Shown: positions 1,603-60,635 of the stretch, piece after piece
Position numbering within the stretch: position 1 is the first letter of the stretch
Layout of the letters: each line of letters starts with the position of its first letter
Origin: Nitrospirales bacterium
Lineage (GTDB): Bacteria; Nitrospirota; Nitrospiria; Nitrospirales; UBA8639
Assembly: GCA_022828225.1 (NCBI GenBank)
Contig: JAJEJG010000002.1
Coordinates: forward strand, 20,268-84,267
DNA: 64,000 nucleotides
Reading direction: 5' to 3'
The notes under the pieces: generated by a model
Told to the model about the DNA's origin: nothing
What the model saw: the letters and a program-made list of their open reading frames with translations, nothing else
Database searches by the model: none
Program-made: the position numbers and the translations under genes

Positions 1603-2250
1603 GTGTCTGTGATAACGAGTCCTCTCCCGCCATTGTACGTGGTCACCGACCGGTTCCGGACCGGAGAAGATCGGTTCCTCAGCATCCTCGAAGACATCGT
1701 CCCCGAGCAGGGGATGATGATTCAGATCCGGGAAAAAGACCTCGACACCCGTGAGCTGCTACGGTTTGTGGAAGCGGTTCGGCAATTGGCTCATCCCTTT
1801 CGTGTTCCGTGTTTGATCAATGACCGTGTGGACCTGGTCCTCGCGACCAAGGCCGCAGGCGTCCATCTTCCCGCTGACAGCATGCCGACCAAAGAGGCCC
1901 GCCAATGTCTGGGCGACGGCTATCTCATCGGCAAGTCGATCCATTCCGCGGAAGAGGCCCTGCAAAGCGAGCAGGATGGCGCGGACTTCGTGGTACTCGG
2001 CCCGGTGTATGAGACGCCGTCCAAACAGGAGTACGGTCCTCCGTTGGGTACTGACGTGATTCGTGAAGCCGTCCGGCACTGTACGATTCCCGTGTACGCG
2101 ATCGGCGGACTGACGCCGGCTCGCGTGGAACAGGTGATGGCGGCCGGCGCCGCGGGCGTCGCCGTCATTTCTTCCATTTTTCAAGCGGCGTCGTCACGCG
2201 AGGCCGTAACGAGGTATGCCACGCAACTGCGCAAATGGCGACCGCAATAG
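1603..2250 (+). CDS. thiE: Thiamine-phosphate synthase ThiE
   Basis: 215 aa. LYVVTDR...IQIREKDL...LINDRVDLVLATKAAGVHL...VYAIGG are typical ThiE motifs. GTG start is uncertain. Confidence 0.85.
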   Translation: MSVITSPLPPLYVVTDRFRTGEDRFLSILEDIVPEQGMMIQIREKDLDTRELLRFVEAVRQLAHPFRVPCLINDRVDLVLATKAAGVHLPADSMPTKEARQCLGDGYLIGKSIHSAEEALQSEQDGADFVVLGPVYETPSKQEYGPPLGTDVIREAVRHCTIPVYAIGGLTPARVEQVMAAGAAGVAVISSIFQAASSREAVTRYATQLRKWRPQ

Positions 2251-2264
2251 AACGGTCCCGTATA

Positions 2265-2406
2265 GGAACCTCTGATTTATGGTGATAGCGGGATGCAGGG
2301 CAAGGCGTCCCGCAGCGAAACCCGAGGCTTATCAGAGAGATAGGCGAGGGTTGAGCGAGGACACAACGCAGCCATGCGCCCGATAGTGCAATAAATCAGA
2401 GGTTCC
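2265..2406. mobile_element. Family-E MITE-like element, full copy E1 (142 bp)
   Basis: Perfect 16-bp terminal inverted repeat GGAACCTCTGATTTAT/ATAAATCAGAGGTTCC. About 93% identical by eye to the copy at 60495-60635. No ORF. Confidence 0.8.
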
Positions 2407-2526
2407 TTTATATTGACCCTTTCCGAAACCCAGTGCTAGAATTTGCCGCCCCGACGTGAGGTGAGCGGTATGTGGGTTTCGCCTCACCAATACAAGGGTT
2501 TCAGCGGTAGAGCAAAGGACCCTTCC

Positions 2527-4206
2527 ATGGGCTTGAGAAAACACGAAGACTACAACCGGGAGATCGAGAAACTACGCGGAGAACTCCAATCCCTGGAAAC
2601 CGAAATGCGCCATCTCTACGAGACGCGCATGAAACTCCAGCAATCGGAGAAACAGAATAAACGCTTGGCGGACAGTCTCCAGGAAGCCAAAGCCCAGATT
2701 GAAACCCTCCGCACGGAGATTGCCAAACTCACGGCCCCGCCCTCGGCGTATGCGCTCTTCTGCAGTTTGAATGATGACGCCAGCGCCAACGTCTACGTCT
2801 CGGGCAGAAAAATGCGCGTCAGCGTGCATAGTTCGGTGTCGAGCGCGACCCTGCGAAAAGGACAGGAAGTGATTTTGAATGAAGCCTTGAACATCATCGA
2901 GGCGCGGGCCTTCGATCCCCAGGGACAAGTGGTGAAGATGAAAGATCAACTGGATGGCTCGCGGGCGCTGATTCAATTGCACCACGACGAAGAACGCATC
3001 GTCGAACTGGGAGAGCCGCTACTGCACGAATCGTTGAGCGTGGGCGACCACCTGCTCTATGACCCCCGGTCGGGCTACGTCATCGAAAAAATCCCCAAAT
3101 CCGAAATCGAAGAGTTGGTCCTCGAAGAAGTCCCGGACGTGCAATATGAAGATGTGGGGGGATTGACCAAAGAAGTCGAGCAGGTAACGGATGCCGTGGA
3201 ATTGCCCTTTTTGTACCCGGAACTGTTCAAGGAACATCGTCTGACTCCACCCAAAGGTGTCCTCTTGTACGGACCTCCCGGGTGTGGAAAGACCATGATC
3301 GCCAAAGCCGTGGCGAATTCCATTTCCAGGAAAATGCGGCATTTGTCCGGCAAGGACGTGCGCAGTTACTTCCTGCACGTGAAGGGACCCGAGCTCTTGA
3401 ACAAATACGTGGGTGAATCCGAACGGTACATCCGCGAGGTTTTCGCCAAGGCGCGGGACAAAGCCGTAACCGGGAATCCCGTCGTGGTGTTTTTCGATGA
3501 AATGGACGCGTTGTTCCGCACGCGGGGGTCAGGGATTTCGTCCGATATCGAATCCACGATCGTCCCGCAGTTTTTGGCGGAGATCGACGGGGTCGAAAAG
3601 CTCAAGAACGTGATCGTCATCGGGGCGAGCAACCGGCAGGACCTCATCGATCCGGCGGTGTTACGAACGGGGCGGTTGGACGTGAAAGTCAAAATCCCCA
3701 GACCGAACAAACAGGGCGCGCGGGATATTTTCGCCAAGTACCTCACCGATGACCTGCCGTTCGCCAAAGAGGAACTCGACCGGCACGCCCGGGACCGGCA
3801 GGCCCTGGTCTCGCACCTGCTCGACCTGACGGTGGAGTCCATGTATGCCACGTCGGAGGACAACAAGTTCCTGGAAGTGACCTATGCCAACGGCGAAAAA
3901 GAACTCCTCTATTTCAAAGACTTTGCCAGTGGCGCCCTGATCGAAGGCGTGGTTTCGCGGGCGAAAAAAATCGCGGTGAAACGGGCCATCGGGACGGGTG
4001 AAAAAGGCCTGAAGGAAGAAGACCTCTTGTGCGCCATCCGGGATGAATTCAAGGCGCACGAGGATCTGCCCAATACGACCAATCCCGATGACTGGGCCCG
4101 CATCGCCGGGAAAAAAGGCGAAAAAATCATCCACGTGCGGACCCTGACCCCCGGCTCGGAAGGACCACGCGAGATCGAAACCGTGAGTGCCGGGCATTAC
4201 TTTTAG
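2527..4206 (+). CDS. mpa: Proteasome-associated AAA ATPase Mpa/ARC
   Basis: N-terminal coiled coil (EIEKLRGELQSLETEMRHL...), Walker A GPPGCGKT, C-terminus ...GHYF with the penultimate Tyr of an HbYX-type tail. Followed by dop. Start taken at ATG 2527 (MGLRKHEDY); the track ORF opens at 2443. Confidence 0.9.
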   Translation: MGLRKHEDYNREIEKLRGELQSLETEMRHLYETRMKLQQSEKQNKRLADSLQEAKAQIETLRTEIAKLTAPPSAYALFCSLNDDASANVYVSGRKMRVSVHSSVSSATLRKGQEVILNEALNIIEARAFDPQGQVVKMKDQLDGSRALIQLHHDEERIVELGEPLLHESLSVGDHLLYDPRSGYVIEKIPKSEIEELVLEEVPDVQYEDVGGLTKEVEQVTDAVELPFLYPELFKEHRLTPPKGVLLYGPPGCGKTMIAKAVANSISRKMRHLSGKDVRSYFLHVKGPELLNKYVGESERYIREVFAKARDKAVTGNPVVVFFDEMDALFRTRGSGISSDIESTIVPQFLAEIDGVEKLKNVIVIGASNRQDLIDPAVLRTGRLDVKVKIPRPNKQGARDIFAKYLTDDLPFAKEELDRHARDRQALVSHLLDLTVESMYATSEDNKFLEVTYANGEKELLYFKDFASGALIEGVVSRAKKIAVKRAIGTGEKGLKEEDLLCAIRDEFKAHEDLPNTTNPDDWARIAGKKGEKIIHVRTLTPGSEGPREIETVSAGHYF

Positions 4207-5699
4207 TGCTCTTGCTCAATGGAGAGTCTTTGCAGCGCATTATCGGCACAGAAACGGAATTTGGTGTCGCCTCGCGTCACGTCCACGCATCCGATCCCGT
4301 TGAGAACTCCCTCCACCTGATCAGTCAGTACCCGTCGCTCATCGCCCCACAGGCTATTTGGGATTACGAGAACGAAAACCCCCTGCGTGACGCGCGCGGG
4401 TTTGAAGTCGAGGGCGAACGCGAACGTCCGGGGCCCGAGTATAACCGGGCGCTCAACAAACTCCTGGCGAACGGCGGCCGCCTGTACGTGGACGGGGCCC
4501 ATCCCGAATATTCCACGCCGGAATGCAGTACGGCGCGCGAATTGGTCGCGTATGAACGCGCGGGGGAACTCGTGGCCGCCAAGTGCCTGGAGGCCCTGAA
4601 CCGGACGGCGGAGGGGTACGTGCTGTACAAGAACAATTCCGACGGCAAGGGGAACAGCTACGGGTACCATGAAAACTATCTGATGGACCGCTCGGTGCCG
4701 TTCGACGTGATTCTTCAGGGCTTGTTGCCGTTTTTCGTGTCGCGTCCCATCGTGGCGGGAGCCGGGAAAGTCGGCGCGGAAAACGGAGCCGCGCCCGCGA
4801 CGTATCAGATCTCTCAACGCGCGGACTTTTTCGAATGCGTGGCGGACCTCAATACCATGGTCAAACGACCTCTGATCAACACCCGTGATGAGCCACATGC
4901 GGACCCCGCGCGGTTTCGCCGGTTACACGTGATCGTCGGTGACGCCAACATGGCGGAACTCTCCACGTACCTGAAGGTGGGCACCACGGCGATCGTGACG
5001 CACATGCTGGACGAAGGCCACGACGTCCCCGCGTTTGAGCTGGAGAACCCCGTGGATGCCGTCAAGGTCGTTTCACGCGATCTCACCGTCAAGGCCGACC
5101 TGAAGTTGGTCCGGGGCGGCGCGACCAATGCGTTGGCCATCCAACGCGCCTACCTCCGGACCGCGCATGAGTTTTACGCCTGTCGCGAGTTGTCGCCTGC
5201 GACCAAGGACGTGTTGGTGCGATGGGAAAACGTCCTGGATAAACTCGAACGCGATCCCGGGCAATTGGCCGCGGAACTCGATTGGGTGGCCAAACGGCAA
5301 ATGATCGAGTCGTACGTGGACCGAAAAGGCTGCGGATGGAATGATCCGCGCGTGGCCTTGATGGACCTGCAATACCACGACGTGCGGCCGGACAAGGGCC
5401 TGTATTATACGCTCGAACGGAGCCGGCGGATTGAACGCTTGCTGGATGACGAGGAAATCGTCGCCGCGGAATTGCAGGCCCCGAGAGGGACGCGCGCCTA
5501 TTTTCGCGGCGCCTGTCTCCGGAAATTTCCCCAGCAGATCTACGGAGCCAGTTGGACCTCGGTGCTCTTCGACGTCGGAGACGTGGCCGTCAAACGGGTG
5601 CCGTTGATGGACCCCTTGAGGGGCACGCAGGATCTGACCAATGAGTTGTTGGAAGGCGTGGAGACCGCGCAACAACTCCTGGACCGTTTATCGGCTTGA
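4206..5699 (+). CDS. dop: Pup deamidase/depupylase Dop
   Basis: LQRIIGTETEFGV...WDYENENPLRDARGF...GGRLYVDGAHPEYSTPECS matches Dop rather than PafA. The true start may be TTG 4230, giving MQRIIGTE. Confidence 0.88.
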   Translation: MLLLNGESLQRIIGTETEFGVASRHVHASDPVENSLHLISQYPSLIAPQAIWDYENENPLRDARGFEVEGERERPGPEYNRALNKLLANGGRLYVDGAHPEYSTPECSTARELVAYERAGELVAAKCLEALNRTAEGYVLYKNNSDGKGNSYGYHENYLMDRSVPFDVILQGLLPFFVSRPIVAGAGKVGAENGAAPATYQISQRADFFECVADLNTMVKRPLINTRDEPHADPARFRRLHVIVGDANMAELSTYLKVGTTAIVTHMLDEGHDVPAFELENPVDAVKVVSRDLTVKADLKLVRGGATNALAIQRAYLRTAHEFYACRELSPATKDVLVRWENVLDKLERDPGQLAAELDWVAKRQMIESYVDRKGCGWNDPRVALMDLQYHDVRPDKGLYYTLERSRRIERLLDDEEIVAAELQAPRGTRAYFRGACLRKFPQQIYGASWTSVLFDVGDVAVKRVPLMDPLRGTQDLTNELLEGVETAQQLLDRLSA

Positions 5700-5710
5700 A
5701 CGAGCCACGC

Positions 5711-5801
5711 TTCTACCTCCCCTCGCCCCTCCTTACAAAGGAGGGGAAGGTTTGATGACTTTATACCTCCTCTTTGTAAGGGGAGGGAAGGTGGGGTAGA
5801 G
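5711..5801. repeat. Family-B REP-like hairpin units, inverted pair (B1) in the canonical pup slot
   Basis: CTACCTCCCCTCGCCCCTCCTTACAAAGGAGGGGA (5711-5748) and CCTCCTCTTTGTAAGGGGAGGGAAGGTGGGGTAGAG (5766-5801). Each holds a CCTCCCCTT-TGT-AAGGGGAGG type stem-loop. Confidence 0.85.
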
Positions 5802-5896
5802 TGTCTGGGCATGGGAAGGGGAAGTAGATGAGGGAATCGTCAACAAATGACAGAACACATAGAAAATCACAGAGTATGAGGTAACTTCTGGCCACC

Positions 5897-6733
5897 ATGA
5901 AATCGTTCCTGTCCCAGATGCCCGTGAATCAATGCTCCAGTTTTTTTGATTTCATCCATCAGACTCGGCCCGAACTGACGCCCGCGGCGCGGTGGGGGAG
6001 CGAAGGGCACGTCTCCGCGTCGGCGGACGAGATTCAGCGGCACGTCGTCTCACAGCTTGCTCACGGGACGACCGTGTTGGCCGTGAAATACGAGAAGGGC
6101 GTCGTGATCGTCGGTGATCGCCGCGCCATCGAAGGCTATCAGGTCGCGTCGCGTCGCATGGAGAAGGTCTTCAAAACCGACAGCCATTCGGCTATCGCCA
6201 TCGCCGGGGCCGCGGGTCCCTGCATGGAAATGGCCAAGCTGTTCGGGATCGAACTGGAACATTATGAAAAACTGGACGGCGTCCCGTTATCCTGCGAAGG
6301 CAAGGCCAACCGGTTGGGGCAGATGGTGAAAGCCAATTTGCCCATGGTCATGCAAGGGTTGGTCGTGATTCCGCTCTTCGTGGGGTTCGACCTGAAGCAA
6401 CAGGAGGGCCGGATTTTCAAATACGACGTCACCGGCGGAAAATACGAAGAAACGGAGTATCACGCGGTCGGGTCCGGGGGAAAAGACGCCCGGGTGACCA
6501 TCAAGGAACGGTTTCGCAAGAACTTGTCCCAGCCCGAAGCGATTGCCCTGGGGCTCCAGGCGATCCTGAGCGCGGCGGAAGAGGACTTGGGAACCGGCGG
6601 ACCCGATGCCTTCCGGGGCATCTATCCGACCATCAAAATCGTCGACGTCCAAGGCGTGCGGGACGTGGAAGAATCCGAGGTGGCGTCCCAATGCGACCGT
6701 TTGGCTCAAGCACGACCCGGGGGTGAATCCTGA
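5897..6733 (+). CDS. prcB: Proteasome beta subunit PrcB (with propeptide)
   Basis: 278 aa. Propeptide ends ...QLAHG and is followed by TTVLAVKYEKGVV, the catalytic Thr1 context. ATGA overlap with prcA. Confidence 0.9.
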   Translation: MKSFLSQMPVNQCSSFFDFIHQTRPELTPAARWGSEGHVSASADEIQRHVVSQLAHGTTVLAVKYEKGVVIVGDRRAIEGYQVASRRMEKVFKTDSHSAIAIAGAAGPCMEMAKLFGIELEHYEKLDGVPLSCEGKANRLGQMVKANLPMVMQGLVVIPLFVGFDLKQQEGRIFKYDVTGGKYEETEYHAVGSGGKDARVTIKERFRKNLSQPEAIALGLQAILSAAEEDLGTGGPDAFRGIYPTIKIVDVQGVRDVEESEVASQCDRLAQARPGGES

Positions 6734-7416
6734 TGACGCTGCCGTTCTACGTGTCCCCCGAACAATTAATGCAAGACAAGGCGGAGTATGCCAAGAAAGG
6801 CATTGCCAAGGGCCGGTCGATCGTGGCCATCGAGTACCGCGACGGCGTACTGTTCGTCGCGGACAATCCCAGCAGTTCATTATTCAAGATCTCCGAAATT
6901 TACGACAACATCGCCTTTTCCGGAGCGGGGCGATACAGCGAATTCGAAAGCCTGCGCAAGGCGGGCATTCAACACGCCGACTTGAAGGGGTTCATGTACA
7001 GTCGTGAAGACGTCACGGCCCGTTCCCTGGCCAACGGGTATTCGCAGACCCTGGGCACGATATTCAGCCAGGAACTGAAACCCTTCGAAGTGGAAATCCT
7101 TTTGGCTCAAATCGGAGAACAACCCGAACAGACGGAACTGTACCGCATCGCGTTCGATGGAACGATCATTCACGAAAAGGAATTCGTCGCCATCGGAGGC
7201 CGGGCGGACGCCGTAGTATCCGCCTTGCGCGCAATGGGATCGGAACAAGTCCCCGACCTGAAAACCGCCCTCACCCGGTGCATGAGCGCCCTCGAAACCG
7301 CCACGAGCCAGACCATATCCCTCCAAGCCCTCGAAGTGGCACTCCTCGACCGCACCCGCACCGGCCGCAAATTCCGCCGCATCCCCGCAGAAGAAGCCGT
7401 CACCCTCCTGTCCTAA
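6733..7416 (+). CDS. prcA: Proteasome alpha subunit PrcA
   Basis: 227 aa. MTLPFYVSPEQLMQDKAEYAKKGIAKGRSIVAIEYRDGVLFVADNPS...ISEIYD matches bacterial 20S alpha subunits. Confidence 0.9.
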   Translation: MTLPFYVSPEQLMQDKAEYAKKGIAKGRSIVAIEYRDGVLFVADNPSSSLFKISEIYDNIAFSGAGRYSEFESLRKAGIQHADLKGFMYSREDVTARSLANGYSQTLGTIFSQELKPFEVEILLAQIGEQPEQTELYRIAFDGTIIHEKEFVAIGGRADAVVSALRAMGSEQVPDLKTALTRCMSALETATSQTISLQALEVALLDRTRTGRKFRRIPAEEAVTLLS

Positions 7417-7418
7417 CC

Positions 7419-7477
7419 TCCCTTATTCCCTTCCTTTGTAAGCCTGTCCTGAGCCTGTCGAAGGGGAGGGGCAAGGT
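7419..7477. repeat. Family-B unit with a family-C segment inserted in its loop (B2/C)
   Basis: TTCCCTTCCTTTGTAAG-[CCTGTCCTGAGCCTGTCGAAGG]-GGAGGGGCAAGGT. The B stem halves are split by the 22-bp C motif. Confidence 0.7.
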
Positions 7478-7521
7478 CCGCATTGAGGATCTCCCACTCA
7501 CCTTGAACACGCGTAACAGGC

Positions 7522-7564
7522 TTGAAAAAGCGACTCTTTCCGTGTATCTTGACTAACTTAGTCA
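7522..7564 (+). promoter_or_regulatory. Candidate sigma-70 promoter plus palindromic operator of the phd/vapC pair
   Basis: TTGAAA (7522-7527), 17-nt spacer, TATCTT (7545-7550). Perfect palindrome TGACTAAcTTAGTCA at 7550-7564, 18 nt before the antitoxin ATG. Confidence 0.45.
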
Positions 7565-7581
7565 TAAAGGAGGAAGCCATT

Positions 7582-7878
7582 ATGGGTAGATCTCGTCAAG
7601 CCAAGCAGACCGGTTCGACGCGGCTTCACGGCTGGAAGTTGGGAGAGGCCAAAGCGAAGTTCAGCGACGTTGTCCGCCTGGCTGCCTCAGGCCAGCCACA
7701 ACGTGTGACGGTGCGAGGCAGGGAGACGGTCGTCGTCGTGGAGGCGTCCGAATTCGAACGCCTTCGTGCGCGGAGCACGTCGGCCAGCCTGCACGATCTC
7801 TTGTCTCGGTCTCCCTTGAACCGCTTGGAGTTCGGCGATGAAGGCGTACGGAGTCCGGTCCGTGCGGTCGAGTTGTGA
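7582..7878 (+). CDS. Phd/YefM-type antitoxin
   Basis: 98 aa. WKLGEAKAKFSDVVRLAASGQPQRVTVRGRETVVVVEASEFERL is typical prevent-host-death. AAGGAGG RBS before ATG 7582. Stop overlaps the vapC GTG. Confidence 0.8.
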   Translation: MGRSRQAKQTGSTRLHGWKLGEAKAKFSDVVRLAASGQPQRVTVRGRETVVVVEASEFERLRARSTSASLHDLLSRSPLNRLEFGDEGVRSPVRAVEL

Positions 7879-8300
7879 ATGGATGGCTGCTCGATACCAA
7901 CGTCGTGTCCGAGTTACGCAAGACCCGGCCCAACCGGCGCGTGAAGGCGTGGTCCGATGCGCAAGCGGCGGATAACTTCTTTCTCAGCAGCGTCACCCTT
8001 GCCGAGATTCGTTTCGGGATCGAGTGCCAAGCAGACCCCATACTTCGCGAGGAACTCGAAGCGTGGCTTGCCCACCGGCTGAGGCCCTGGTTTGCCGGGC
8101 GTATTTTGCCCGTGGACGAGGAAGTCATCCTGGAATGGCGCCGCATGGTCGCGCGAGGCAGAGAAAGGGCGATTACGTTCAGTCAACCGGATCTCTTTAT
8201 CGCCGCGACCGCACAAGTGCATGCCCTGACGCTCTGTACCCGTAACGAGAGAGACTTTCGCAGGGCCGACATTCGGGTCTTCAATCCTTGGTCGGAGTGA
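7875..8300 (+). CDS. vapC: PIN-domain toxin VapC (FitB-like)
   Basis: 141 aa. WLLDTNVVSELRK...SSVTLAEIRFGIE...LFIAATAQVHALTLCTRNERDF carries the PIN acidic residues. GTGA overlap with the antitoxin. Confidence 0.85.
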   Translation: MNGWLLDTNVVSELRKTRPNRRVKAWSDAQAADNFFLSSVTLAEIRFGIECQADPILREELEAWLAHRLRPWFAGRILPVDEEVILEWRRMVARGRERAITFSQPDLFIAATAQVHALTLCTRNERDFRRADIRVFNPWSE

Positions 8301-8328
8301 GCAGGCTAGGTACGCCCACTTTGCGAAA

Positions 8329-8483
8329 CATAGCAAAATAATAGCAGGACATAGCAGAAAACATAGCAAGTTATAGCAGAATCATAGCAAACATAGCGTG
8401 GCATAGCATGAAACATAGCAATCATAGCATGAAACATAGCAAGACATAGCAACAGTGCAACAAAACATAGCAAAAGCATAGCA
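8329..8483 (+). repeat. Helically phased array of 15 (C)ATAGCA heptamers
   Basis: ATAGCA starts at 8330, 8341, 8351, 8363, 8373, 8384, 8393 (ATAGCG), 8403, 8415, 8424, 8436, 8446, 8454 (AGTGCA), 8467, 8478. All share one orientation. Spacings run 8-13 bp, mean about 10.6. AT-rich and non-coding. Confidence 0.9.
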
Positions 8484-8484
8484 A

Positions 8485-8763
8485 TGTCATGCCCGACGCC
8501 GATCGGGCATCCAGCGTCTTTTCTTTTTCCTGCGGGGTTTCGCCCCCGCACGCCGAGGTTCCTTCGGCAGGTCCTTCGCGTTGCTCAGGACAAGCTCAGG
8601 ACAGGCTCTTTTATTTCGGCAAAAGGATCCAGAACCATCGGCGCCCGGGCGCAGCCCCGCCCGCAGGCGCCAAGACGTGGCGGCATAAGATGCCGCGGCT
8701 ACGAATGTAAAAAAATGAAAGGAGAGGACGCTGGATTCCCGATTAAAAATGTCGGGAATGACA
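8485..8763. repeat. Family-A arms enclosing about 200 bp (copy A2, expanded or compound)
   Basis: Left arm TGTCATGCCCGACGCCGATCGGGCATCCAGCGTCTTTT (8485-8522). Right arm AGGACGCTGGATTCCCGATTAAAAATGTCGGGAATGACA (8725-8763). Interior holds a family-C motif (8573-8606). Confidence 0.6.
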
Positions 8764-8870
8764 AGAGGGGAGTCGGGGCTGACAAGAGGGGCGTTGGGGA
8801 ATTGGGGATGCCAGGAAAGGAGGCGGACGCGTCTGTTCCGTCTGTGTCACGTCTATGCTAACATGAAAGC

Positions 8871-10244
8871 ATGAAACGGATTTTCGGACTGGAGTGTGAA
8901 TACGGGCTCACCTTCTCGCCCAACGGCCGGGTGTATCTGCCCATTGAAAAAATTCTGGGGTACATCTTCGAAGGGTTGATCCCGAACAGTTGGCCGTCCA
9001 ACGCGTTCCTGACGAACGGGGCCAGGTTTTATCAGGATACCGGGTGCCATCCCGAGTATGCCACGCCGGAGTGCGACGACATTTTCGAGTTGGTGGTGCA
9101 CGAAAAAGCCGGCGAGCGCATCCTGGAATCCTGTTTGCCCGCGGCGGAAGAACGTCTCCGGGAAGAAGGGCTGGCCGGGGACATCTATATTTTCAAGAAC
9201 AACACGGATTCCCTGGGGAACACCTACGGGTGTCATGAAAACTTTTTGATGCAGCGTGACGTGGATTTCTGGAAGGTGGCGGAACAGTTGATCCCGTTTT
9301 TCGTGACGCGACAGATTTATTCAGGCGCGGGGAAAGTGCTCAAGGTCTCGGGCAAACCGCACTATTTTCTGTCCCAGCGGGCCCAGCACATTCACGAAAA
9401 AACCTCGTCTTCCACGACCTCGTCCCGCAGCATCATCAACACGCGGGATGAGCCGCATGCGGATGCGGAACGGTATCGACGCCTCCATATCATTCTCGGG
9501 GATTCCAATATGTCGGAGTTCGCGACGTACCTGAAGGTCGGCACTGCGGATCTGGTGTTGTCCATGATCGAGGCCGGGTATTTTATCCAGGGTATTGAAT
9601 TGGAAGATCCCGTCAAAGCCATCAGGGAAATTTCCCGTGACCCCACGTTGAAGAAAAAGGTGAAATTGGACGACGGGCGGGAGTTCTCCGCCTTGGAAAT
9701 CCAACGCATCTTTTTGGAAAAGGCCTCGGAATTTCTCCACGCCCGGCCTTATGACAAGGTGCTGGCCGACGTGCTGACGGAATGGGAACGCGTATTGAAC
9801 GCATTGGCGGATGACCCCATGCAGTTGGTCAAGGAGGTCGATTGGGTGACGAAGCGCTGGATTATTCAGTCGTATATCGACCGCAAAGGGTGCGGGTGGG
9901 ATGATCCGCGAGTGGCGATGATGGATCTGCAATATCACGACGTGAACCGGAAGCGCGGGCTCTATTACATATTGGAGGCGCACGACAAGACGGTGAAAAT
10001 GGTGGATGAAGCCGCCGTGGAACGCGCCACGTCGATTCCGCCCCAGTCCACCCGCGCCAAGGTGCGAGGCGACTTTATCCGGTTCGCCCGGGCCAAGAAC
10101 CGGTCCTACACGGTCGATTGGACGTACTTGAAATTAAACGGCTATTGGGAAGAAACGATCTTGTGCATGGATCCTTTTTGTGCGTCCAGCCGGCGGGTGG
10201 ATGAACTATTGGCCCAGGTGTCTCCCGCCTCCCTCCGGACGTAA
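8871..10244 (+). CDS. pafA: Pup-protein ligase PafA
   Basis: 457 aa. MKRIFGLECEYGLTF...NAFLTNGARFYQDTGCHPEYATPECD matches PafA and is paralogous to Dop. Confidence 0.88.
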   Translation: MKRIFGLECEYGLTFSPNGRVYLPIEKILGYIFEGLIPNSWPSNAFLTNGARFYQDTGCHPEYATPECDDIFELVVHEKAGERILESCLPAAEERLREEGLAGDIYIFKNNTDSLGNTYGCHENFLMQRDVDFWKVAEQLIPFFVTRQIYSGAGKVLKVSGKPHYFLSQRAQHIHEKTSSSTTSSRSIINTRDEPHADAERYRRLHIILGDSNMSEFATYLKVGTADLVLSMIEAGYFIQGIELEDPVKAIREISRDPTLKKKVKLDDGREFSALEIQRIFLEKASEFLHARPYDKVLADVLTEWERVLNALADDPMQLVKEVDWVTKRWIIQSYIDRKGCGWDDPRVAMMDLQYHDVNRKRGLYYILEAHDKTVKMVDEAAVERATSIPPQSTRAKVRGDFIRFARAKNRSYTVDWTYLKLNGYWEETILCMDPFCASSRRVDELLAQVSPASLRT

Positions 10245-10245
10245 T

Positions 10246-11163
10246 ATGGACTTGCCTTCCTACTCTTTCCGCCCGACCGTTCGTCCGTGGCTCGTGGCAC
10301 TGGTGTTGGTGCTGGCGAGCGTGTTCCCGGTCAGCCTGTTGTTCAAGGACGGTCCGCGGTACTCCGTGGGGGCCGACGGACAAGTCAGCGGCAAACAGGG
10401 AGAAGTCGTGCTGGTGACGATCCCCGTCAAGGGCCGTCCGGACCGGATCACAGGGCGATTCTTAACACGCACGCTGACTTTTTTCCCCGTCAAGGAGCAG
10501 ACCTATGCCGGACTGCTGGGACTGGACATGCAGGACCGTCCCGGCCGGTATGAACTGACGATCGACGTCGTCTATCTCCAACGGACGGAACGCCGGAGTC
10601 TGTCGGTGTTGGTGATGAAGGAAGAGTATCCCGAGCAACGGTTGACCCTGCCCTCCAAGATGGTGGATCTCGATAAGAAAACCTTGGCCCGGGTCACGAC
10701 CGAATCCAAAGCCGTTCACGAGGCATTCGACGCTTTCGTGCCGCATCCCCTGTGGAAGGGCCGGTTTGTGGAGCCGGTTTCGGGAAAAATCTCCGGGCGA
10801 TTCGGCAGTCGCCGGGTCATCAACGGCCAGCCCAGAAAACCCCATAGCGGGGAAGACATCGCGGCGCCCAAAGGCACGCCCGTCGTAGCCATGAACGATG
10901 GGATGGTGCGCCTCACCGCGGATCACTTCTTCTCGGGAAAAGGGGTGATCGTGGATCATGGGCTCGGTCTCTTTTCCATGTACTTTCACCTATCCAGCGT
11001 GGACGTGAAACACGGCCAGGTCGTGAAAAAAGGGCAGGTGATCGGGAAGGTCGGCTCCACGGGACGGGCGACCGGCCCGCATCTCCATTGGGGGGTGCGC
11101 CTGAACGGATCACGAGTCGATCCCTACTCGTTGCTTGACCTGAGCGTTGGCGTCCGATCGTAA
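10246..11163 (+). CDS. M23 family metallopeptidase
   Basis: N-terminal TM/signal (WLVALVLVLASVF). C-terminal HSGEDIAAPKGTPV...HLHWGVRLNGSRVDP is the M23 LytM motif. ATG lies 2 nt after the pafA stop. Confidence 0.8.
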   Translation: MDLPSYSFRPTVRPWLVALVLVLASVFPVSLLFKDGPRYSVGADGQVSGKQGEVVLVTIPVKGRPDRITGRFLTRTLTFFPVKEQTYAGLLGLDMQDRPGRYELTIDVVYLQRTERRSLSVLVMKEEYPEQRLTLPSKMVDLDKKTLARVTTESKAVHEAFDAFVPHPLWKGRFVEPVSGKISGRFGSRRVINGQPRKPHSGEDIAAPKGTPVVAMNDGMVRLTADHFFSGKGVIVDHGLGLFSMYFHLSSVDVKHGQVVKKGQVIGKVGSTGRATGPHLHWGVRLNGSRVDPYSLLDLSVGVRS

Positions 11164-13042: not shown

Positions 13043-13765
13043 ATGCCGTTAATGAAAAAAAAGCAGTGGCAGAGCGCCGCACCGGACGATGAACGGGTGG
13101 CGTGGCTGGCGTTGGTGCCGGTTGGACTGACAGCGTGCTTTTATCTTCTTCCGGCCTCGGCCCGGGAGAACCTGTTCCTGCAATTCCTGCCGCAGTTCGC
13201 CGCATACGGAGCGCTGGTCATCTGGTGGAAAGCCAATACCGATGTGCTGCCGGCACTGGGACTTTCCCGGGACAGCCCGACGCGAGGCGTGGGGTGGGGG
13301 CTCGCCACGGGGTGTATCCTGGGTGTGGTCAATTCGACCGTGATCCTGTGGGTGGTCCCGGTGCTCGGTGGCGACGTGCGGTTTCTGGCGGACACGCCGC
13401 ATGCCCGGATGCCCGTGTTCGTGATGATCCCCTGGTTCACGGTCCTGATCGCGATTGCAGTCGAATTAAATTTTCGAGGGTTTCTTCTGGGCCGGCTGGA
13501 GTTTTTCTGTTGCCGGTGGCTGCCGGTGACGAGCGCACGAGGCCTCCGCCTTGGGTCGATCGTAGCGATGTTGGTGTCGGCCTTGGTCTTTGCATTCGAT
13601 CCGTTCATGGTGATGACGTTTCGGCATCTCCACTGGATTGCCGTCTGGGACGGACTCATTTGGGCGGTCCTCTTCGTGCGGTGGCGGAACCTGGGGACCG
13701 TGATCGCAGCCCACGCCATCGAGGTGATGATCCTGTATCTTAGCGTGAAAACGGCACTCGCGTGA
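13043..13765 (+). CDS. CPBP family intramembrane glutamic endopeptidase (CAAX protease-like)
   Basis: 240 aa, polytopic. AVELNFRGFLLGRL (EExxxR-type motif) and AAHAIEVM (HxxxN/D-type motif). Confidence 0.6.
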   Translation: MPLMKKKQWQSAAPDDERVAWLALVPVGLTACFYLLPASARENLFLQFLPQFAAYGALVIWWKANTDVLPALGLSRDSPTRGVGWGLATGCILGVVNSTVILWVVPVLGGDVRFLADTPHARMPVFVMIPWFTVLIAIAVELNFRGFLLGRLEFFCCRWLPVTSARGLRLGSIVAMLVSALVFAFDPFMVMTFRHLHWIAVWDGLIWAVLFVRWRNLGTVIAAHAIEVMILYLSVKTALA

Positions 13766-13899
13766 TCTTCCCTGCGTCGTTGACGGAGGGGACAGGATTT
13801 GCGCCCGGAACAAGTCTGGTGTAAGTCTAACAGGAATCCCTCATCAGGCTTGCCGTCTGCACACCAAGAGATGAAAATGAGGACACCTCTCCCCAATCC

Positions 13900-13928
13900 G
13901 TCATTCCCGATCGGGGTCGGGAATGACA
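13900..13928. repeat. Family-A minimal palindrome (A4)
   Basis: GTCATTCCCGA-TCGGGG-TCGGGAATGAC(A). The two family-A termini are joined directly as an 11-bp stem. Confidence 0.75.
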
Positions 13929-14010
13929 AAAAGGGGCTATTTTCATACCAAGATCATTCGACGATGAACGCTTGCTCGCCGTTACCAAGAATCCGGAGAG
14001 GAATCATGTG

Positions 14011-14436
14011 ATGGAAGAACTGGTCAAACCCATCGTTCAGGCTTTTTTGGTGTGCGATTCCGTGATCCTGGACAGCTTCACCAGAAAAAAGAGCATCATC
14101 GGCACGTTCACGCATTTGTGGGCGCCGCGCTTTCCTTGCCAGCATCCTCAGATGGGCGTGTATTTCTGTTTGACGGACGCGGAAGGACAGTATGAATTCG
14201 AACTCCGCCTCGTGTATTTGGATCAGGATCAGCTCATCGGGACCGCCTCGTTGCCGTCGGTCGCTATCAAGGACCGGTTGCAGATCCATGATTTCGGAGT
14301 GAATATTCCTGCCTTGGTCTTTCCCGCTCCGGGCCGGTATGAATTCCGCTTGTTTGCCAATGGTTACTTCGTCACCCAAAAAGACTTCAATGTAATCCAA
14401 CAAACCCCTCAGCAACCCAACCCCGAATCCTCATAG
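14011..14436 (+). CDS. Hypothetical protein
   Basis: 141 aa from ATG 14011, with GGAGAGG 9 nt upstream. Coding-like composition. No family recognised. Confidence 0.5.
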   Translation: MEELVKPIVQAFLVCDSVILDSFTRKKSIIGTFTHLWAPRFPCQHPQMGVYFCLTDAEGQYEFELRLVYLDQDQLIGTASLPSVAIKDRLQIHDFGVNIPALVFPAPGRYEFRLFANGYFVTQKDFNVIQQTPQQPNPESS

Positions 14437-14456
14437 TAAAGCCCTCGCACCCGGTT

Positions 14457-14520
14457 TGTCATCCTTGACTACTCCCGTCTGTCATTCCCGATATTTTTAA
14501 TCGGGAATCCAGCGTCTTTT
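14457..14520. repeat. Family-A left arm only (A5)
   Basis: TGTCATCCTTGACTACTCCCGTCTGTCATTCCCGATATTTTTAATCGGGAATCCAGCGTCTTTT. No matching right arm follows. Confidence 0.7.
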
Positions 14521-14692
14521 GTTTTTTCCTTCGTTCGTGAAGACATGGGACGGCACTCTTCGGCTTCGCTTAGGGCAGGCTCCGGCCGTCTTCTACACAG
14601 CCGGGCCTTGACTTATAACTGACGGGATTTATCTGTAATTCTGGAAGCGCTTCAACGGAAACAGAACAAGACAACATAAGAGGAGGTGCGAT

Positions 14693-15133
14693 ATGTTGGT
14701 CAAATGGAATCCGTTTCAAGAACTCGAACGAACCGTGGGCTGGTGGAATACGCAACCGTTTCAGCGTCCGCAATGGGATGATCCGGAGGCATCGGCGATC
14801 AACTGGGTCCCGCCGGTGAACGTCTATGAAGACAAAGAACACTTGTTTGTCGAAGCCCAATTGCCGGGTATCGACATGCAGGACGTGAAGATCTCCGTGA
14901 CCGACGACACGTTGCAACTGCACGGCGAGCGGAAAGAGGAACGCACGGAAGACCGGGACAATTATCATTTCCGTGAAGCGCAGTACGGATCGTTTGCCCG
15001 GAATTTCCGTCTTCCCGACTACGTCAACCCGGATCAGGCGTCGGCGCGGTACGAGAAAGGCGTGTTGATCGTACAGGTTCCCAAGCGGGAAGAAACCAAG
15101 CCCAAGTCGATCCCGATCAACGTCAAGGGCTAA
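14693..15133 (+). CDS. Hsp20/alpha-crystallin small heat-shock protein
   Basis: 146 aa. VPPVNVYEDKEHLFVEAQLPGIDMQDVKISV...FARNFRLPDYV...ARYEKGVLIVQVPK. GAGGAGG RBS. Confidence 0.9.
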   Translation: MLVKWNPFQELERTVGWWNTQPFQRPQWDDPEASAINWVPPVNVYEDKEHLFVEAQLPGIDMQDVKISVTDDTLQLHGERKEERTEDRDNYHFREAQYGSFARNFRLPDYVNPDQASARYEKGVLIVQVPKREETKPKSIPINVKG

Positions 15134-19623: not shown

Positions 19624-21168
19624 TTACACCTTGACGGTCAGGAACAACGGTGTTCCTTGACGGTTGATAAACAGGAGAATCGTCTGTTCCTTCGACAAGG
19701 TCTTCACCGCTTGTCGAAAGTCTTGCGACGATTCCACCGGGGTCCGGTTGATCTCACGGATCACGTCACCTTGAACGAGTCCGGCCTGCTCGGCTTGGCT
19801 GCCCGCGCGAATATCCGTCACGACGACACCGGCGATTTGGCCGTCAATGCCGAGTCGTTTGGCCATGCGGGGAGTGAGGTCCTCCACGGTCAGCCCGGCC
19901 AGGCGAGACTCCGCATCGGCGTCCTGCGCGGAGGCGACCCGTTGCCCCATCGGATGTTCCACGATCGACGTGCGCAGGGCCTGCTCGGCTCCGTCACGCA
20001 TGACCGTGATGGTGACCTCGGTCCCGACCGGGGTGGTGGTCACCGCCCGTTGCAGCTCCCTGGGGCCGGCAATCGGTTGATCCTGGTATCGAATGATGGT
20101 ATCGCCTCGCCGGAGTCCGGCTCGGTCTGCCGGGCTGGCATCACGCACCTCCGTCACGATGGCGCCGTCAGGTCGGTCCAGGTGAAACGACTTGGCCAGT
20201 TCAGGCGTGACGGCTTGAATCCCGACGCCCAAAAACCCGCGGGTGACTTTCCCCGTCGATACCAAGCTGGCATAGACGTGTTGGCCGATGCTGGCGGGAA
20301 TGGCCAATCCGACGCCCTGGTAGCCGCCCGACCTCGAAAGGATGGCGGTGTTGATACCCACCAATTCGCCGTGCATGTTGACCAGGGCGCCGCCGGAGTT
20401 CCCGGGATTGATCGCGGCATCGGTTTGAATGAAATCTTCATATTGCGTAATGCCCACGCCGCGCCCCTTGGCGCTCACGATGCCCTGCGTGACCGTGGAG
20501 CGCAGCCCGAACGGACTTCCGATGGCGAGCACGTAATCCCCCACCTCGAGTTTGGACGAATCGCCCCAGGCGATGAACGGCAGGTTGTCCCCTTGAATTT
20601 TAATCACGGCCAAATCCGTTTGCGGGTCGCTGCCCACGATCGAGCCGGTGAACTCTCGTTTGTCGAGCAGGGCAACCGTGACCGTTTTCGCACCATCGAC
20701 GACGTGGTGGTTGGTGACCACGTATCCCTCGGGACTCACGATGACCCCGGAGCCCATCCCCTTGCCGCGAGGTTCTTGCCAGGGGTTGGAAAAGGGCGGC
20801 GTCCCATAGGAATGTTTGTCCCGCGGGCCGAACTTGAACCAATCGGGGACGCCGGGGACGTCCGGTACGTCAGAGAGTCCGGTGCCCACAACCTTGGAGA
20901 CGGTGATATTGACGACGGCCGGTCTGACGGCTTTGACAATGTGTGCGAACCCGCGCCCGACCTCGAATTCGGACGGGACGGCTTTCGTCATGGAATGAGC
21001 CGGAGTTGGAACTGCGGACGGTGCCGGCGAGCCCACCGCGCCGGTCGAAAACGCGGCGACCAGCATTCCCGTCAATAATAAGCTCACCGTCACAGCGATC
21101 AGGAAATTCTTCCTGCCCTGCGTTTCGGTGAGCGACATGGACGATGAACGATTCAGCGATTGTTTCAT
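19624..21168 (-). CDS. Periplasmic serine endoprotease DegP/HtrA (two PDZ domains)
   Basis: Signal/TM region, then GNSGGALVNMHGELVGINTAI (catalytic Ser). Two PDZ-like regions. AAGGAGG precedes ATG 21168. Confidence 0.88.
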   Translation of the reverse strand: MKQSLNRSSSMSLTETQGRKNFLIAVTVSLLLTGMLVAAFSTGAVGSPAPSAVPTPAHSMTKAVPSEFEVGRGFAHIVKAVRPAVVNITVSKVVGTGLSDVPDVPGVPDWFKFGPRDKHSYGTPPFSNPWQEPRGKGMGSGVIVSPEGYVVTNHHVVDGAKTVTVALLDKREFTGSIVGSDPQTDLAVIKIQGDNLPFIAWGDSSKLEVGDYVLAIGSPFGLRSTVTQGIVSAKGRGVGITQYEDFIQTDAAINPGNSGGALVNMHGELVGINTAILSRSGGYQGVGLAIPASIGQHVYASLVSTGKVTRGFLGVGIQAVTPELAKSFHLDRPDGAIVTEVRDASPADRAGLRRGDTIIRYQDQPIAGPRELQRAVTTTPVGTEVTITVMRDGAEQALRTSIVEHPMGQRVASAQDADAESRLAGLTVEDLTPRMAKRLGIDGQIAGVVVTDIRAGSQAEQAGLVQGDVIREINRTPVESSQDFRQAVKTLSKEQTILLFINRQGTPLFLTVKV

Positions 21169-21308
21169 GGGTTCCTCCTTTATGTAGCGGCGAAGCTGTG
21201 TATTTTCCCTGTGCAATCCTGCGTTGAAACAGTTATAGCAACGGAACATGAAAGGAAAATTAATCTCGGATTAAAAACTTCTAATTTGGAAAACAACTCT
21301 CCCCTTTC

Positions 21309-26112: not shown

Positions 26113-26145
26113 CTTCAGGGTATTACCGTCGTTATACCCAAGTCC

Positions 26146-26385
26146 ATGAAAACAGCGGTCTCCATACCGGATACCGTGTTCCAATAGGCAGATCGATTCG
26201 CCAAGCGCAAAGCCATCTCGCGGAGTGAACTCTACACCAGAGCCGTCAGGACCAATCTGGAACGGGAAGAGCACATCACGGAGCAACTCAATGCCGTGTA
26301 CGATGCTGAAGAGTCTAGGCTGGACACGGTGTTGGAGGATCTTCAGTATCGTTTCGTCCGGGAGAATGGTTTTGCGGAGAGGTGA
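26146..26385 (+). pseudogene. Ribbon-helix-helix (CopG/MazE-like) antitoxin with an in-frame TAG at codon 14; no toxin partner
   Basis: MKTAVSIPDTVFQ*ADRFAKRKAISRSELYTRAVRTNLEREEH... has an RHH antitoxin N-terminus. TAG at 26185-26187. No downstream Met to restart. The next gene is a porin rather than a toxin. Confidence 0.55.
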
Positions 26386-56734: not shown

Positions 56735-56860
56735 TGTCTTGATAGCAGGCCATATGAGAGAATTCCGCGTCTTCTGTTCAAATCAGATCAAACTGCGACA
56801 CACGGTTGATGGCGAATCAGCCGAATGGGTGGCGTCCGGGCTATGAAGGGAGACCGTATT

Positions 56861-58717
56861 ATGTTTCGTCATGTTCGTCTGTTCGGTATTCTTGTTGTCA
56901 TCTTTGGTTTCACCGGTAGCGCCTGGGGCCAGAATTTCAGCGACGTCGTCGTATTCGGCGACAGCCTGAGCGACTCGGGCAATGCAGGAAGCTTGCAACC
57001 ACTGCCTCCGGGCACCAGCTTCACCACTAATCCCGATCCGGTCTGGTCCGAGATCGTTGCGGAAAATTTCAGCGCGTCGGGCATGAACTCGCTCGCCGGC
57101 GGGCCAAACTACGCTTTTGCCGGGGCCTGCGTGAATCCGGCTACGCCTTGCACTTTTGATGTGGTGCCGACGGTGACGGAGCAGATCGAACAGTACTTCT
57201 TGAGATCGGACGGGCAAGCCGACCCGAACGCGCTCTATGTCATCTGGGGCGGCGGGAACGACGTCGCCGACTCCGCGGGAAGTGACCCGCTTAACGCGGC
57301 AAGACATACGGTGATGGCTGCAAGCGTCAACGTTCAGCAGATACGGCGTCTTCAGGACGCCGGCGCCCGTACTATCGTGGTGTACAACCTGCCCGATATC
57401 AGCAAATCCCCTTATGCCGGCAATCAAGGTCCGCTGGTCCAGGGAGCATTGACCCAACTGGTTACCGCCTACAACGAGGGGCTTCATGCCGGCATTCGCG
57501 AAAGCGAGAATGGGATCGTTCCCATCAACGTCTTTGCTTTTGCGAATGAAATCGTCGAAAACCCCGGGACGTATGGCTTCCTCAACGTCACCGGCACGGC
57601 TTGCGGGGAGCCGGATGCCACAAGTGCGGTTTCGATCACGTGCGGCCCGCAGGGCTCCGGTTATCCCGTTTCCTATGAAGATGGTGCCAACCGGCAATAT
57701 CTGTTCGCGGACCGGAGCCACCCCAGCGGCGCGATGCACGCGATGATCGCGAGTCTGGTCACCTCCACGCTGGCGGCTCCGGTTCAGGTGTCCCTTGCCG
57801 GCGAAGGGGGCGTCGAGATGGCGAACATTCACCGTAGCGCCGTATCAGCCGAGCGGATGACGGATCTCGGGCTCGACCGTTCGGTCGGGAGTTGGCGCGC
57901 CTACGTGACGGGTCGCATCGGTCAGTATGAGCTGGATGCCCTGCCGCGTCTCGGCGAAACGCAAGCCGACGTGCAGGTGTTCACCCTGGGAGCCAACCAC
58001 CGGCCGGGAACCAATCTGTGGTGGGGCGCTGCCTTGAGCTTTGGGTGGTATAACAATGACGCCTCGGGTGCGAGTCTCGAGAGCAGTGCGGTAATCGGGT
58101 CGGTGCACGGCACGTGGCGCCGCGGCGGCCTCTACGTGAGCGGCGCCCTGAGCGCGGGCAGTACGTCGGTGGACGTCAAGCGCTCGATCACTTTCGGCCC
58201 TGTCGTGCGTGCCGAGCAGGGCTCCACCAGCGCCGGTCAGTTCGGAGCTGAATTCGATACAGGCTGGATGCTTGGTGATCCCGGTGGTCTCCAACACGGT
58301 CCCTTCCTGGGTCTGGCCTGGCTCAATCAGTCGGTCGACGGGTTCCGGGAGAGCGGAAGTCGCTCCACCGCGATGAACTTCTCCGGCTTCGACCGGGACT
58401 CCCTCATCGCGCGTGCGGGCTACCGCGTCACGAGGACTTTAACCTTGAATCGCGTGGGGCTGCGCCCTTATGCCAATCTCGCCTATGCGAAGGAGTTCAA
58501 GGACGATCCCATTGCGGTGACCGCGGGCTCCAATACCATGCCGGGGCGTTTTACTCTCTCGGGTTTCACCCCGCCGCGCCATTGGGGCAGCGCCGATCTT
58601 GGTGTCGTCGTGAGCCTGTTTGAGAAAGCAAACGTCTTCGCCGGATACACCGGACGATACGGTAGCGAGTCCCGTCTGGACCACAGGGTGAACCTCGGAG
58701 TGAGTATGACCTTCTGA
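56861..58717 (+). CDS. SGNH/GDSL esterase autotransporter (EstA-like)
   Basis: Signal peptide. VVVFGDSLSDSGN (GDSL block I). C-terminal ~280-aa autotransporter beta-domain ending ...LGVSMTF. Confidence 0.85.
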   Translation: MFRHVRLFGILVVIFGFTGSAWGQNFSDVVVFGDSLSDSGNAGSLQPLPPGTSFTTNPDPVWSEIVAENFSASGMNSLAGGPNYAFAGACVNPATPCTFDVVPTVTEQIEQYFLRSDGQADPNALYVIWGGGNDVADSAGSDPLNAARHTVMAASVNVQQIRRLQDAGARTIVVYNLPDISKSPYAGNQGPLVQGALTQLVTAYNEGLHAGIRESENGIVPINVFAFANEIVENPGTYGFLNVTGTACGEPDATSAVSITCGPQGSGYPVSYEDGANRQYLFADRSHPSGAMHAMIASLVTSTLAAPVQVSLAGEGGVEMANIHRSAVSAERMTDLGLDRSVGSWRAYVTGRIGQYELDALPRLGETQADVQVFTLGANHRPGTNLWWGAALSFGWYNNDASGASLESSAVIGSVHGTWRRGGLYVSGALSAGSTSVDVKRSITFGPVVRAEQGSTSAGQFGAEFDTGWMLGDPGGLQHGPFLGLAWLNQSVDGFRESGSRSTAMNFSGFDRDSLIARAGYRVTRTLTLNRVGLRPYANLAYAKEFKDDPIAVTAGSNTMPGRFTLSGFTPPRHWGSADLGVVVSLFEKANVFAGYTGRYGSESRLDHRVNLGVSMTF

Positions 58718-60494: not shown

Positions 60495-60635
60495 GGAACC
60501 TCTGATTTTTGTGATAGCGGGATGCAGGGCAAGGCGTCCCGCAGCGAAACCCGAGGCTTATCACAGAGATAGGTGAGTGTTGAGCGAGGACACAACGCCG
60601 CCATGCGCCCGATGGTGCAAAAAATCAGCGGTTCC
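60495..60635. mobile_element. Family-E MITE-like element, full copy E2 (141 bp)
   Basis: GGAACCTCTGATTT...AAATCAGCGGTTCC. Collinear with E1 along its whole length, with few substitutions. Confidence 0.8.

Follow-up and report, generated by a model that had tools for sequence, protein, structure and literature searches.

To our knowledge, no bacterial system other than pupylation is analogous to the ubiquitin-directed breakdown of proteins by the proteasome. Here, we describe a pupylation locus on a stretch of 64,000 nucleotides (the window) of a Nitrospirales bacterium (GCA_022828225.1, contig JAJEJG010000002.1, positions 20,268 to 84,267), which belongs to a 269-kb scaffold of a sponge metagenome. 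The locus is an actinobacterial-type Pup-proteasome operon of the order Nitrospirales, in a sponge-symbiont lineage, and it holds no gene for the tag Pup in the canonical slot between dop and prcB. The features concerned are the following.

2527-4206, plus strand: mpa (arc), proteasomal AAA ATPase that has a coiled coil at the N-terminus, a pair of OB domains and the tail ...GHYF (TIGR03689, 730 bits)
4206-5699, plus strand: dop, Pup deamidase/depupylase (TIGR03688, 952 bits)
5700-5896, 197 bp, no strand: dop-prcB spacer (canonical pup slot), an inverted pair of REP-like repeats, with no coding capacity for a tag
5897-6733, plus strand: prcB, beta subunit of the 20S core, its propeptide of some 55 residues followed by an HG/TT processing site (TIGR03690, 278 bits)
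6733-7416, plus strand: prcA, 20S alpha subunit (TIGR03691, 298 bits)
8871-10244, plus strand: pafA, Pup ligase (TIGR03686, 936 bits, profile positions 1-456 of 457)

Gene Content of the Locus

All five proteins of the operon score well over the curated cutoffs of the NCBIfam equivalogs, for example 505 bits for Mpa on TIGR03689 and 551 bits for PafA on TIGR03686. Mpa carries the Pfam domains Prot_ATP_ID_OB_N, Prot_ATP_ID_OB_C and AAA, and it aligns with Mycobacterium tuberculosis Mpa (7px9, 644 bits) over residues 52-603, with most of the coiled coil included. Dop aligns with Acidothermus Dop (4b0r, 465 bits) over residues 10-495, and PafA with Corynebacterium glutamicum PafA (4b0t, 373 bits); the identity of Mpa, Dop and PafA to the solved actinobacterial enzymes is 50-60%. 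Since the best PDB match is Dop for the dop product and PafA for the pafA product, the two genes encode distinct PafA-family paralogues. The start codon of mpa, ATG 2527, is kept in the relatives. The longer open reading frame (ORF) from TTG 2443 was rejected as an artefact; ATG 2527 is conserved, and a promoter-like element ends at 2442.

An earlier note on this DNA, made from the sequence alone, had regarded mpa, dop, prcB, prcA and pafA as intact, and their coordinates and identities hold with both Pfam and NCBIfam. Its reading of Mpa, a coiled coil and a tail with a penultimate Tyr, is supported by the alignment with the M. tuberculosis protein and by the GHYF end; the processing site it had placed in PrcB is present as ...LAHG/TTVLAV, and the Dop and PafA signatures are distinct as it had claimed, TIGR03688 and TIGR03686 each falling on its own gene. 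The host is also a diderm, as the note had proposed, given an autotransporter at 56825-58717 (PF03797) and the Nitrospirales ancestry. The operon is flanked by thiSGE on one side and a gene for an M23 peptidase on the other, a placement kept throughout the order.

The Slot between dop and prcB

The canonical pup gene encodes 50-90 amino acids with a C-terminal G-[EQ], is adjacent to a PafA-family gene and lies between dop and prcB (PMC2588565, PMC3511204). In the window, the 197-bp gap is filled by an inverted repeat pair, in agreement with the earlier note, and the arms could be located at 5712-5740 and 5772-5800 (29 nt, 79% complementary). They belong to a dispersed family, whose core CCTCCTTACAAAGGAGGGGAAGG has seven copies in the window against none expected, with further arms elsewhere in the window. 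Like the repetitive extragenic palindromic (REP)-like and miniature inverted-repeat transposable element (MITE)-like intergenic repeats of bacteria, these repeats are short imperfect palindromes with many intergenic copies, single or in inverted pairs; the difference is that the sequence of the family is clade-specific.

With the Dop protein as query, 80 related loci of 17 kb each were collected, all from Nitrospirales or Nitrospiraceae, with Dop identities of 66-98%. The closest relatives are sponge- and coral-associated metagenome-assembled genomes (MAGs) with 88-98% identity, complete chromosomes among them. The gene order thiE-mpa-dop-prcB-prcA-pafA-M23 is found in the relatives wherever the contig reaches. 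In all 75 Nitrospirales loci in which both dop and prcB were found, pup is absent between them, and the spacer ranges from -10 to 387 bp. Among the close relatives, six that lack the repeats (L002, L009, L011, L013, L018 and L020) have a spacer of only 16-31 bp, and on a coral metatranscriptome contig of a relative 21 nt separate the dop stop from the prcB start. Where the mpa-dop gap is larger, in some Nitrospiraceae loci, it holds repeat-like sequence alone.

Within the 316 kb of the sponge/coral-clade loci L001-L021 the repeat core matches 13 times, whereas the other Nitrospirales loci, about 1.46 Mb in all, have no match, and the presence of the repeats varies among the spacers of the relatives. 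Because the core is confined to L001-L021, the repeat family is a recent, clade-specific invader. The empty slot is far older than the repeats, since it is shared by the relatives while the repeats are confined to the sponge clade, and the 16-31-bp spacers without pup in repeat-free relatives show that the repeats entered a spacer which was already empty. The empty slot is thus the ancestral state of the order Nitrospirales, with the repeats inserted later, and it is a feature of the whole order and not of the genome of the window alone. The earlier note had named an ancestral arrangement shared by relatives as grounds for abandoning its account; the comparison of synteny, now run, shows such an arrangement as far as the slot is concerned. 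As a side observation, the core CCTCCTTACAAAGGAGGGGAAGG could act as a lineage marker of the sponge/coral-associated clade in metagenomes.

Search for a Tag Gene

A tag gene elsewhere in the locus was also searched for, together with UBact, the tag of a related cluster described below. None of the stop-to-stop ORFs of the locus has G-Q or G-E at its end, so the statement in the earlier note that no ORF there ends in GGQ or GGE stands. Ten G-[EQ]-terminated ORFs occur elsewhere in the window, none of which is Pup-like or matches a Pfam family. The profiles TIGR03687 (Pup) and NF033388 (UBact) have no match in the three plus-strand frames of 2101-10400 (for the +0 frame, among the best 25 of 53 families), PF05639 (Pup) has none in the locus, and the six frames of all intergenic pieces give no Pup or UBact match at E<=10. 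As positive controls, M. tuberculosis Pup scored 75 bits and UBact sequences 76-80 bits. Searches of six frames of the window and of all loci by phmmer, with M. tuberculosis Pup and UBact as queries, gave no match. The same holds for ubact (NF033388 / PF20513) in the locus and in the 64-kb window. A Pup ORF inside 2251-10300, which had been fixed beforehand as the finding that should overturn the claim of the earlier note, was not found by the profile search.

Furthermore, we trained hidden Markov models (HMMs) on real sequences, 120 of Pup and 126 of UBact, for a search of six-frame ORFs of at least 12 amino acids. They found nothing better than E=0.43 in the window, in the 10 kb further upstream (L370) and in the 80 related loci; by phmmer and these HMMs, the related loci contain no Pup or UBact ORF. 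The spacers of the relatives shrink to 78 bp (thiE-mpa, in L022), 16 bp (dop-prcB) and 93 bp (prcA-pafA, in L022), and they are therefore too short for any tag gene. In addition, the thiE-mpa spacer aligns as promoter and leader, with no conserved ORF. In a protein search with the Pup consensus, which gave more than 8000 matches, the best 120 all came from Actinobacteria. Separately, a Pup-pattern scan of viral contigs gave 7 matches, which have no bearing on this locus.

Two candidates were rejected. The match at E=0.43 (26188-26382) falls in a stop-interrupted ORF resembling ribbon-helix-helix (RHH) antitoxins, whose end is not G-E or G-Q. This RHH/CopG-like antitoxin ORF, at 26128-26382, is broken by an in-frame stop (MKTAVSIPDTVFQ, stop, ADRFAKRKAISRSELYTRAV...) and is the source of the lone weak Pup-HMM match. 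The other candidate is ThiS (324-569), a ubiquitin-fold sulfur carrier encoded 2 kb upstream of mpa in the thiS-thiG-thiE block, the C-terminus of which (...FIGGGAGGIFDC) is extended past the usual GG end. It was dismissed as a tag, since its thiamine-pathway neighbours account for its presence and the chemistry of PafA requires a C-terminal Glu on the tag.

Constraint, Transcripts and Loss

The operon is alive and under strong purifying selection. Compared with eight relatives, the ratios of nonsynonymous to synonymous substitution rates (dN/dS) are 0.05-0.10 for mpa, 0.05-0.10 for dop, 0.03-0.12 for prcB, 0.05-0.15 for prcA and 0.03-0.06 for pafA, the most constrained gene of the operon. The five genes are thus more constrained (0.03-0.15) than the flanking thiE (0.13-0.26) and M23 (0.12-0.19) genes, which together span 0.12-0.26. 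Contigs of sponge and coral metatranscriptomes, 88-99% identical, span mpa, dop, prcB, prcA and pafA, with DNA carry-over being possible.

The operon of the closest complete relative, L001 (OZ242026.1), has 97-99% protein identity apart from pafA, which breaks off after residue 97 with an IS1595-family transposase behind it (13085-14984). Up to residue 97 this pafA is 98% identical; the rest of pafA and M23 do not occur within the next 4 kb.

A Second Cluster of the UBact Type in Nitrospiraceae

A related system, the UBact-proteasome cluster, was reportedly described by Lehmann et al. in 2017. With UBact as query, clusters of the order mpa-dop-UBact-prcB-prcA-pafA were found in many phyla among the best 80 matches, mostly Verrucomicrobiota and some Nitrospira. 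They occur in Nitrospira defluvii (FP929003.1), N. lenta, other Nitrospiraceae and a Leptospirillum (L319), and the best 80 matches of the Dop of the N. defluvii cluster all come from Nitrospiraceae. The protein search with UBact listed the best 120 of 392 matches, and a degenerate DNA pattern gave at least 120.

The proteins of the UBact cluster are 31-44% identical to those of the window. The window enzymes are not orthologous to them, considering the 66-98% Dop identity within the pup-less clusters. Because of this low identity of 31-44%, the pup-less and the UBact clusters are regarded as old paralogues. At least nine MAGs contain both clusters, on different contigs (CAWGSC, CAWAIH, DIHJ, JAABQN, CBDDRH, JANNIV, CAVPGK, CAZKRH and JAICXS). 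No Pup was found near either cluster type in 240 loci. UBact ends in RYRQRTG[EQ], and its C-terminal half LLKRMRKVDPKQAERYRQRTGE is basic, in contrast to Pup (LLDEIDDVLEENAEDFVRAYVQKGGQ), the binding region of which is acidic.

For the sponge clade, contigs of four sponge metagenomes, the source sample included, were compared with two Nitrospira UBact loci. There was no match at the UBact gene, in a test of low power because the expected nucleotide identity of 0.75-0.83 is near the 80% floor. The ENA subgroup P0053 was rejected as a sponge-clade carrier of UBact; with 46% GC it is a different lineage from the sponge clade, which has 57.7% GC. The HtrA-like gene upstream of the Nitrospira UBact clusters has a homologue in the window at 19624-21249. 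It was not accepted as a synteny signal, because the domain architecture differs (two PDZ domains versus one), so that the homologue is a paralogue. On a 142-kb contig with 46% GC (L372, ENA ERZ25070917), which carries a UBact cluster, the coding sequence of the Mpa-like ATPase is annotated in two pieces, one with the OB domain (330 amino acids) and one with the AAA part (258 amino acids), due to a frameshift or a genuinely split gene.

Insertions in the Flanking Spacers

Besides the repeats in the dop-prcB slot, the other spacers of the window operon contain the following features.

2264-2407, no strand: MITE-like element of about 142 bp inserted between thiE and mpa; terminal inverted repeats of 17 nt, AGGAACCTCTGATTTAT / ATAAATCAGAGGTTCCT
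2413-2442, plus strand: putative sigma-70-like promoter ahead of mpa, TTGACC-18-TAGAAT, its -10 element preceded by TG (10/12 in a consensus scan)
7582-7878, plus strand: phd/yefM-family antitoxin (PF02604) between prcA and pafA, called at the same start in the source scaffold
7875-8300, plus strand: PIN-domain VapC toxin, partner of the antitoxin (PF01850; NF047863 VapC, 39 bits, weak against the curated cutoff of 140)
8325-8870, no strand: non-coding filler before pafA, a CATAGCA heptamer array at 8325-8485 (TRF) followed by dispersed-repeat fragments that have copies in other parts of the window

The block TATATTGACCC...GCTAGAAT in the promoter region of mpa is conserved in 15 aligned relatives. 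The MITE-like element has no counterpart in the thiE-mpa spacers of 13 of these 15, and a second copy with 94% identity lies at 60495-60635. It is multi-copy and probably transcribed, because in sponge and coral metatranscriptomes its contig depth is very high, with many different flanks.

The phd-vapC pair is absent from most relatives, in which the prcA-pafA spacer goes down to 93-110 bp; in some relatives it measures 93-160 bp. This spacer (7417-8870 in the window) is an insertion hot spot, with phd-vapC here and in L001, and a 4.8-kb insert in L021 (11063-15856) with genes for ankyrin-repeat and FGE-sulfatase proteins, as is typical of sponge symbionts. The CATAGCA array between vapC and pafA is iteron-like, with about 14 heptamers at 10-12 bp spacing. 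In frame with pafA lies an ORF of 125 amino acids (8484-8861), which we did not accept as a gene: it is made up of repeat fragments, matches nothing in Pfam and is uncalled in the source scaffold. Elsewhere in the window, a 497-amino-acid protein (61566-63059) has a weak match to glutamate-cysteine ligase family 2 (GCS2), the enzymes of which are carboxylate-amine ligases; its start codon is uncertain and there is no exact product on record.

Comparison with Known Systems

Like the actinobacterial Pup-proteasome system, for example that of M. tuberculosis (mpa, dop-pup-prcB-prcA, pafA), the window encodes Mpa, Dop, PrcB, PrcA and PafA in unchanged order, with a Thr after HG at the PrcB propeptide and the penultimate-Tyr tail of Mpa. 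It differs in that there is no pup between dop and prcB or elsewhere in cis, in that the host is a diderm of the Nitrospirales, and in that thiSGE and the M23 peptidase gene flank the operon. The UBact cluster, as in N. defluvii, follows the same overall logic with the order mpa-dop-tag-prcB-prcA-pafA and is found in organisms of the same family. However, its proteins are distant from those of the window, where ubact is lacking, and UBact is basic, unlike Pup.

Within the same phylum, Leptospirillum ferrooxidans has two complete pupylation systems, L1 and L2, which share the same genetic context and have the tag gene present (PMC3511204). The coexistence of an actinobacteria-like and a divergent second system is also seen in at least nine Nitrospiraceae MAGs, whereas the tag gene, present in both Leptospirillum loci by the published description, is missing from the actinobacteria-like locus of the Nitrospirales. 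According to a published survey, Pup always neighbours a gene of the PafA family (PMC2588565), and the gene order of pupylation loci is rigidly conserved (PMC3511204). The Nitrospirales cluster is an exception to this rule of adjacency, and no mention of a pup-less Nitrospirales cluster was found in the literature.

Where is the Tag?

Taken together, we consider it probable that this is a functional operon of the actinobacterial type, whose slot has been empty since the common ancestor of the Nitrospirales and whose tag is supplied in trans. At the least from the common ancestor of the sampled Nitrospirales onwards, the slot after dop has held no pup. The 197-bp gap is a former spacer of about 20 bp that was later given two copies of the clade-specific palindromic repeat, and the prcA-pafA spacer likewise gained the phd-vapC pair and other repeats later. 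PafA would attach to lysines a small tag whose last residue is Glu or Gln, Dop would remove or deamidate it, and Mpa would deliver the tagged proteins to the 20S core. The tag might come from an unlinked pup or, less conventionally, from the ubact of the paralogous cluster that is co-resident in many Nitrospiraceae genomes. Because the enzymes are so close to the actinobacterial ones, a conventional acidic Pup would be the expected partner. A Pup encoded outside the locus is consequently the most likely reading, not a demonstrated one for the clade of the window, and we infer both the existence of the tag and the place where it is encoded.

Several points weigh against a tag in trans acting with a functional operon. 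For the sponge clade, no tag gene was found in the 64-kb window, the 10 kb further upstream and the 17-kb loci of relatives. An unlinked pup would itself be an exception, since the adjacency of Pup and the gene order are reported as invariant (PMC2588565, PMC3511204). The basic C-terminal half of UBact, compared with the acidic Pup, argues against simple sharing of UBact by actinobacterial-like enzymes. The metatranscriptome contigs may be DNA carry-over, and the disruption of pafA in L001 implies that the system can be lost in individual strains.

Other explanations were also considered. Cross-talk between the two systems, in which the cognate pup was lost and the PafA, Dop and Mpa of the actinobacterial type use UBact, so that one tag serves two enzyme sets and two proteasomes, would fit the presence of both clusters in at least nine MAGs, the strong purifying selection on the pup-less cluster and the absence of Pup near either cluster in the 240 loci. 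We regard it as unlikely, since PafA, Dop and Mpa of the window are still 50-60% identical to the actinobacterial enzymes, the coiled coil of Mpa included, while LLKRMRKVDPKQAERYRQRTGE of UBact is basic, unlike the acidic LLDEIDDVLEENAEDFVRAYVQKGGQ of Pup, and the UBact cluster owns a complete enzyme set; in the sponge clade, the contig comparisons, which had low power, gave no match at the UBact gene. It is quite improbable that there is no tag at all, with Mpa and the 20S core degrading substrates directly and PafA and Dop kept for some other carboxylate-amine ligase or amidase activity. A tag was indeed not found in the 74 kb around the operon or in the locus of any relative, and one close relative (L001) has a disrupted pafA. 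However, PafA is the most constrained protein of the operon and far exceeds the cutoff of the Pup-ligase equivalog (936 versus 551 bits), and we know of no Pup-independent role for PafA or Dop.

The two remaining explanations place a tag gene, past or present, in the locus itself, and both had been left as options in the earlier note. A highly divergent or very short tag in cis, missed by all profiles, has in its favour that small ORFs are easily missed and that Pup is intrinsically disordered with a poorly conserved N-terminus. Nevertheless, it is very hard to uphold against the negative six-frame profiles, the lack of any locus ORF ending in G-E or G-Q, the relatives' spacers of down to 78, 16 and 93 bp, and a thiE-mpa spacer that is promoter and leader with no conserved ORF. 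As for displacement, two repeat copies do occupy the slot, yet it is scarcely credible that pup once stood there in the genome of the window and was displaced or destroyed by them: repeat-free relatives with 16-31-bp spacers have no pup, nor has any of the 75 loci across two families, and the empty slot is far older than a repeat family confined to the sponge clade. This option of the note is therefore refuted.

What the Empty Slot Means

The locus is a known system with a new layout, that is, a lineage-wide architectural variant in which the tag gene is not in cis. Seventy-five species-level Nitrospirales loci, of nitrite oxidisers and sponge symbionts, keep the constrained enzymes with no tag in cis. 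For annotators, it should be cautioned that a gap filled with repeats does not amount to gene loss unless relatives are compared. It is conceivable, though rather doubtful, that the whole order keeps PafA, Dop, Mpa and the 20S core under strong purifying selection without a cognate pup, the enzymes being re-targeted to UBact, so that a single tag would serve two ligase/deligase pairs and two proteasomes, or to an unrecognised modifier, and that reduced sponge-symbiont genomes may have no Pup-family gene. If a tag or substrates were shared between the Pup and UBact systems, the view of their divergence would change. If instead an unlinked pup supplies the tag, as we consider most likely, this would be a modest correction of the 'rigid synteny' rule.

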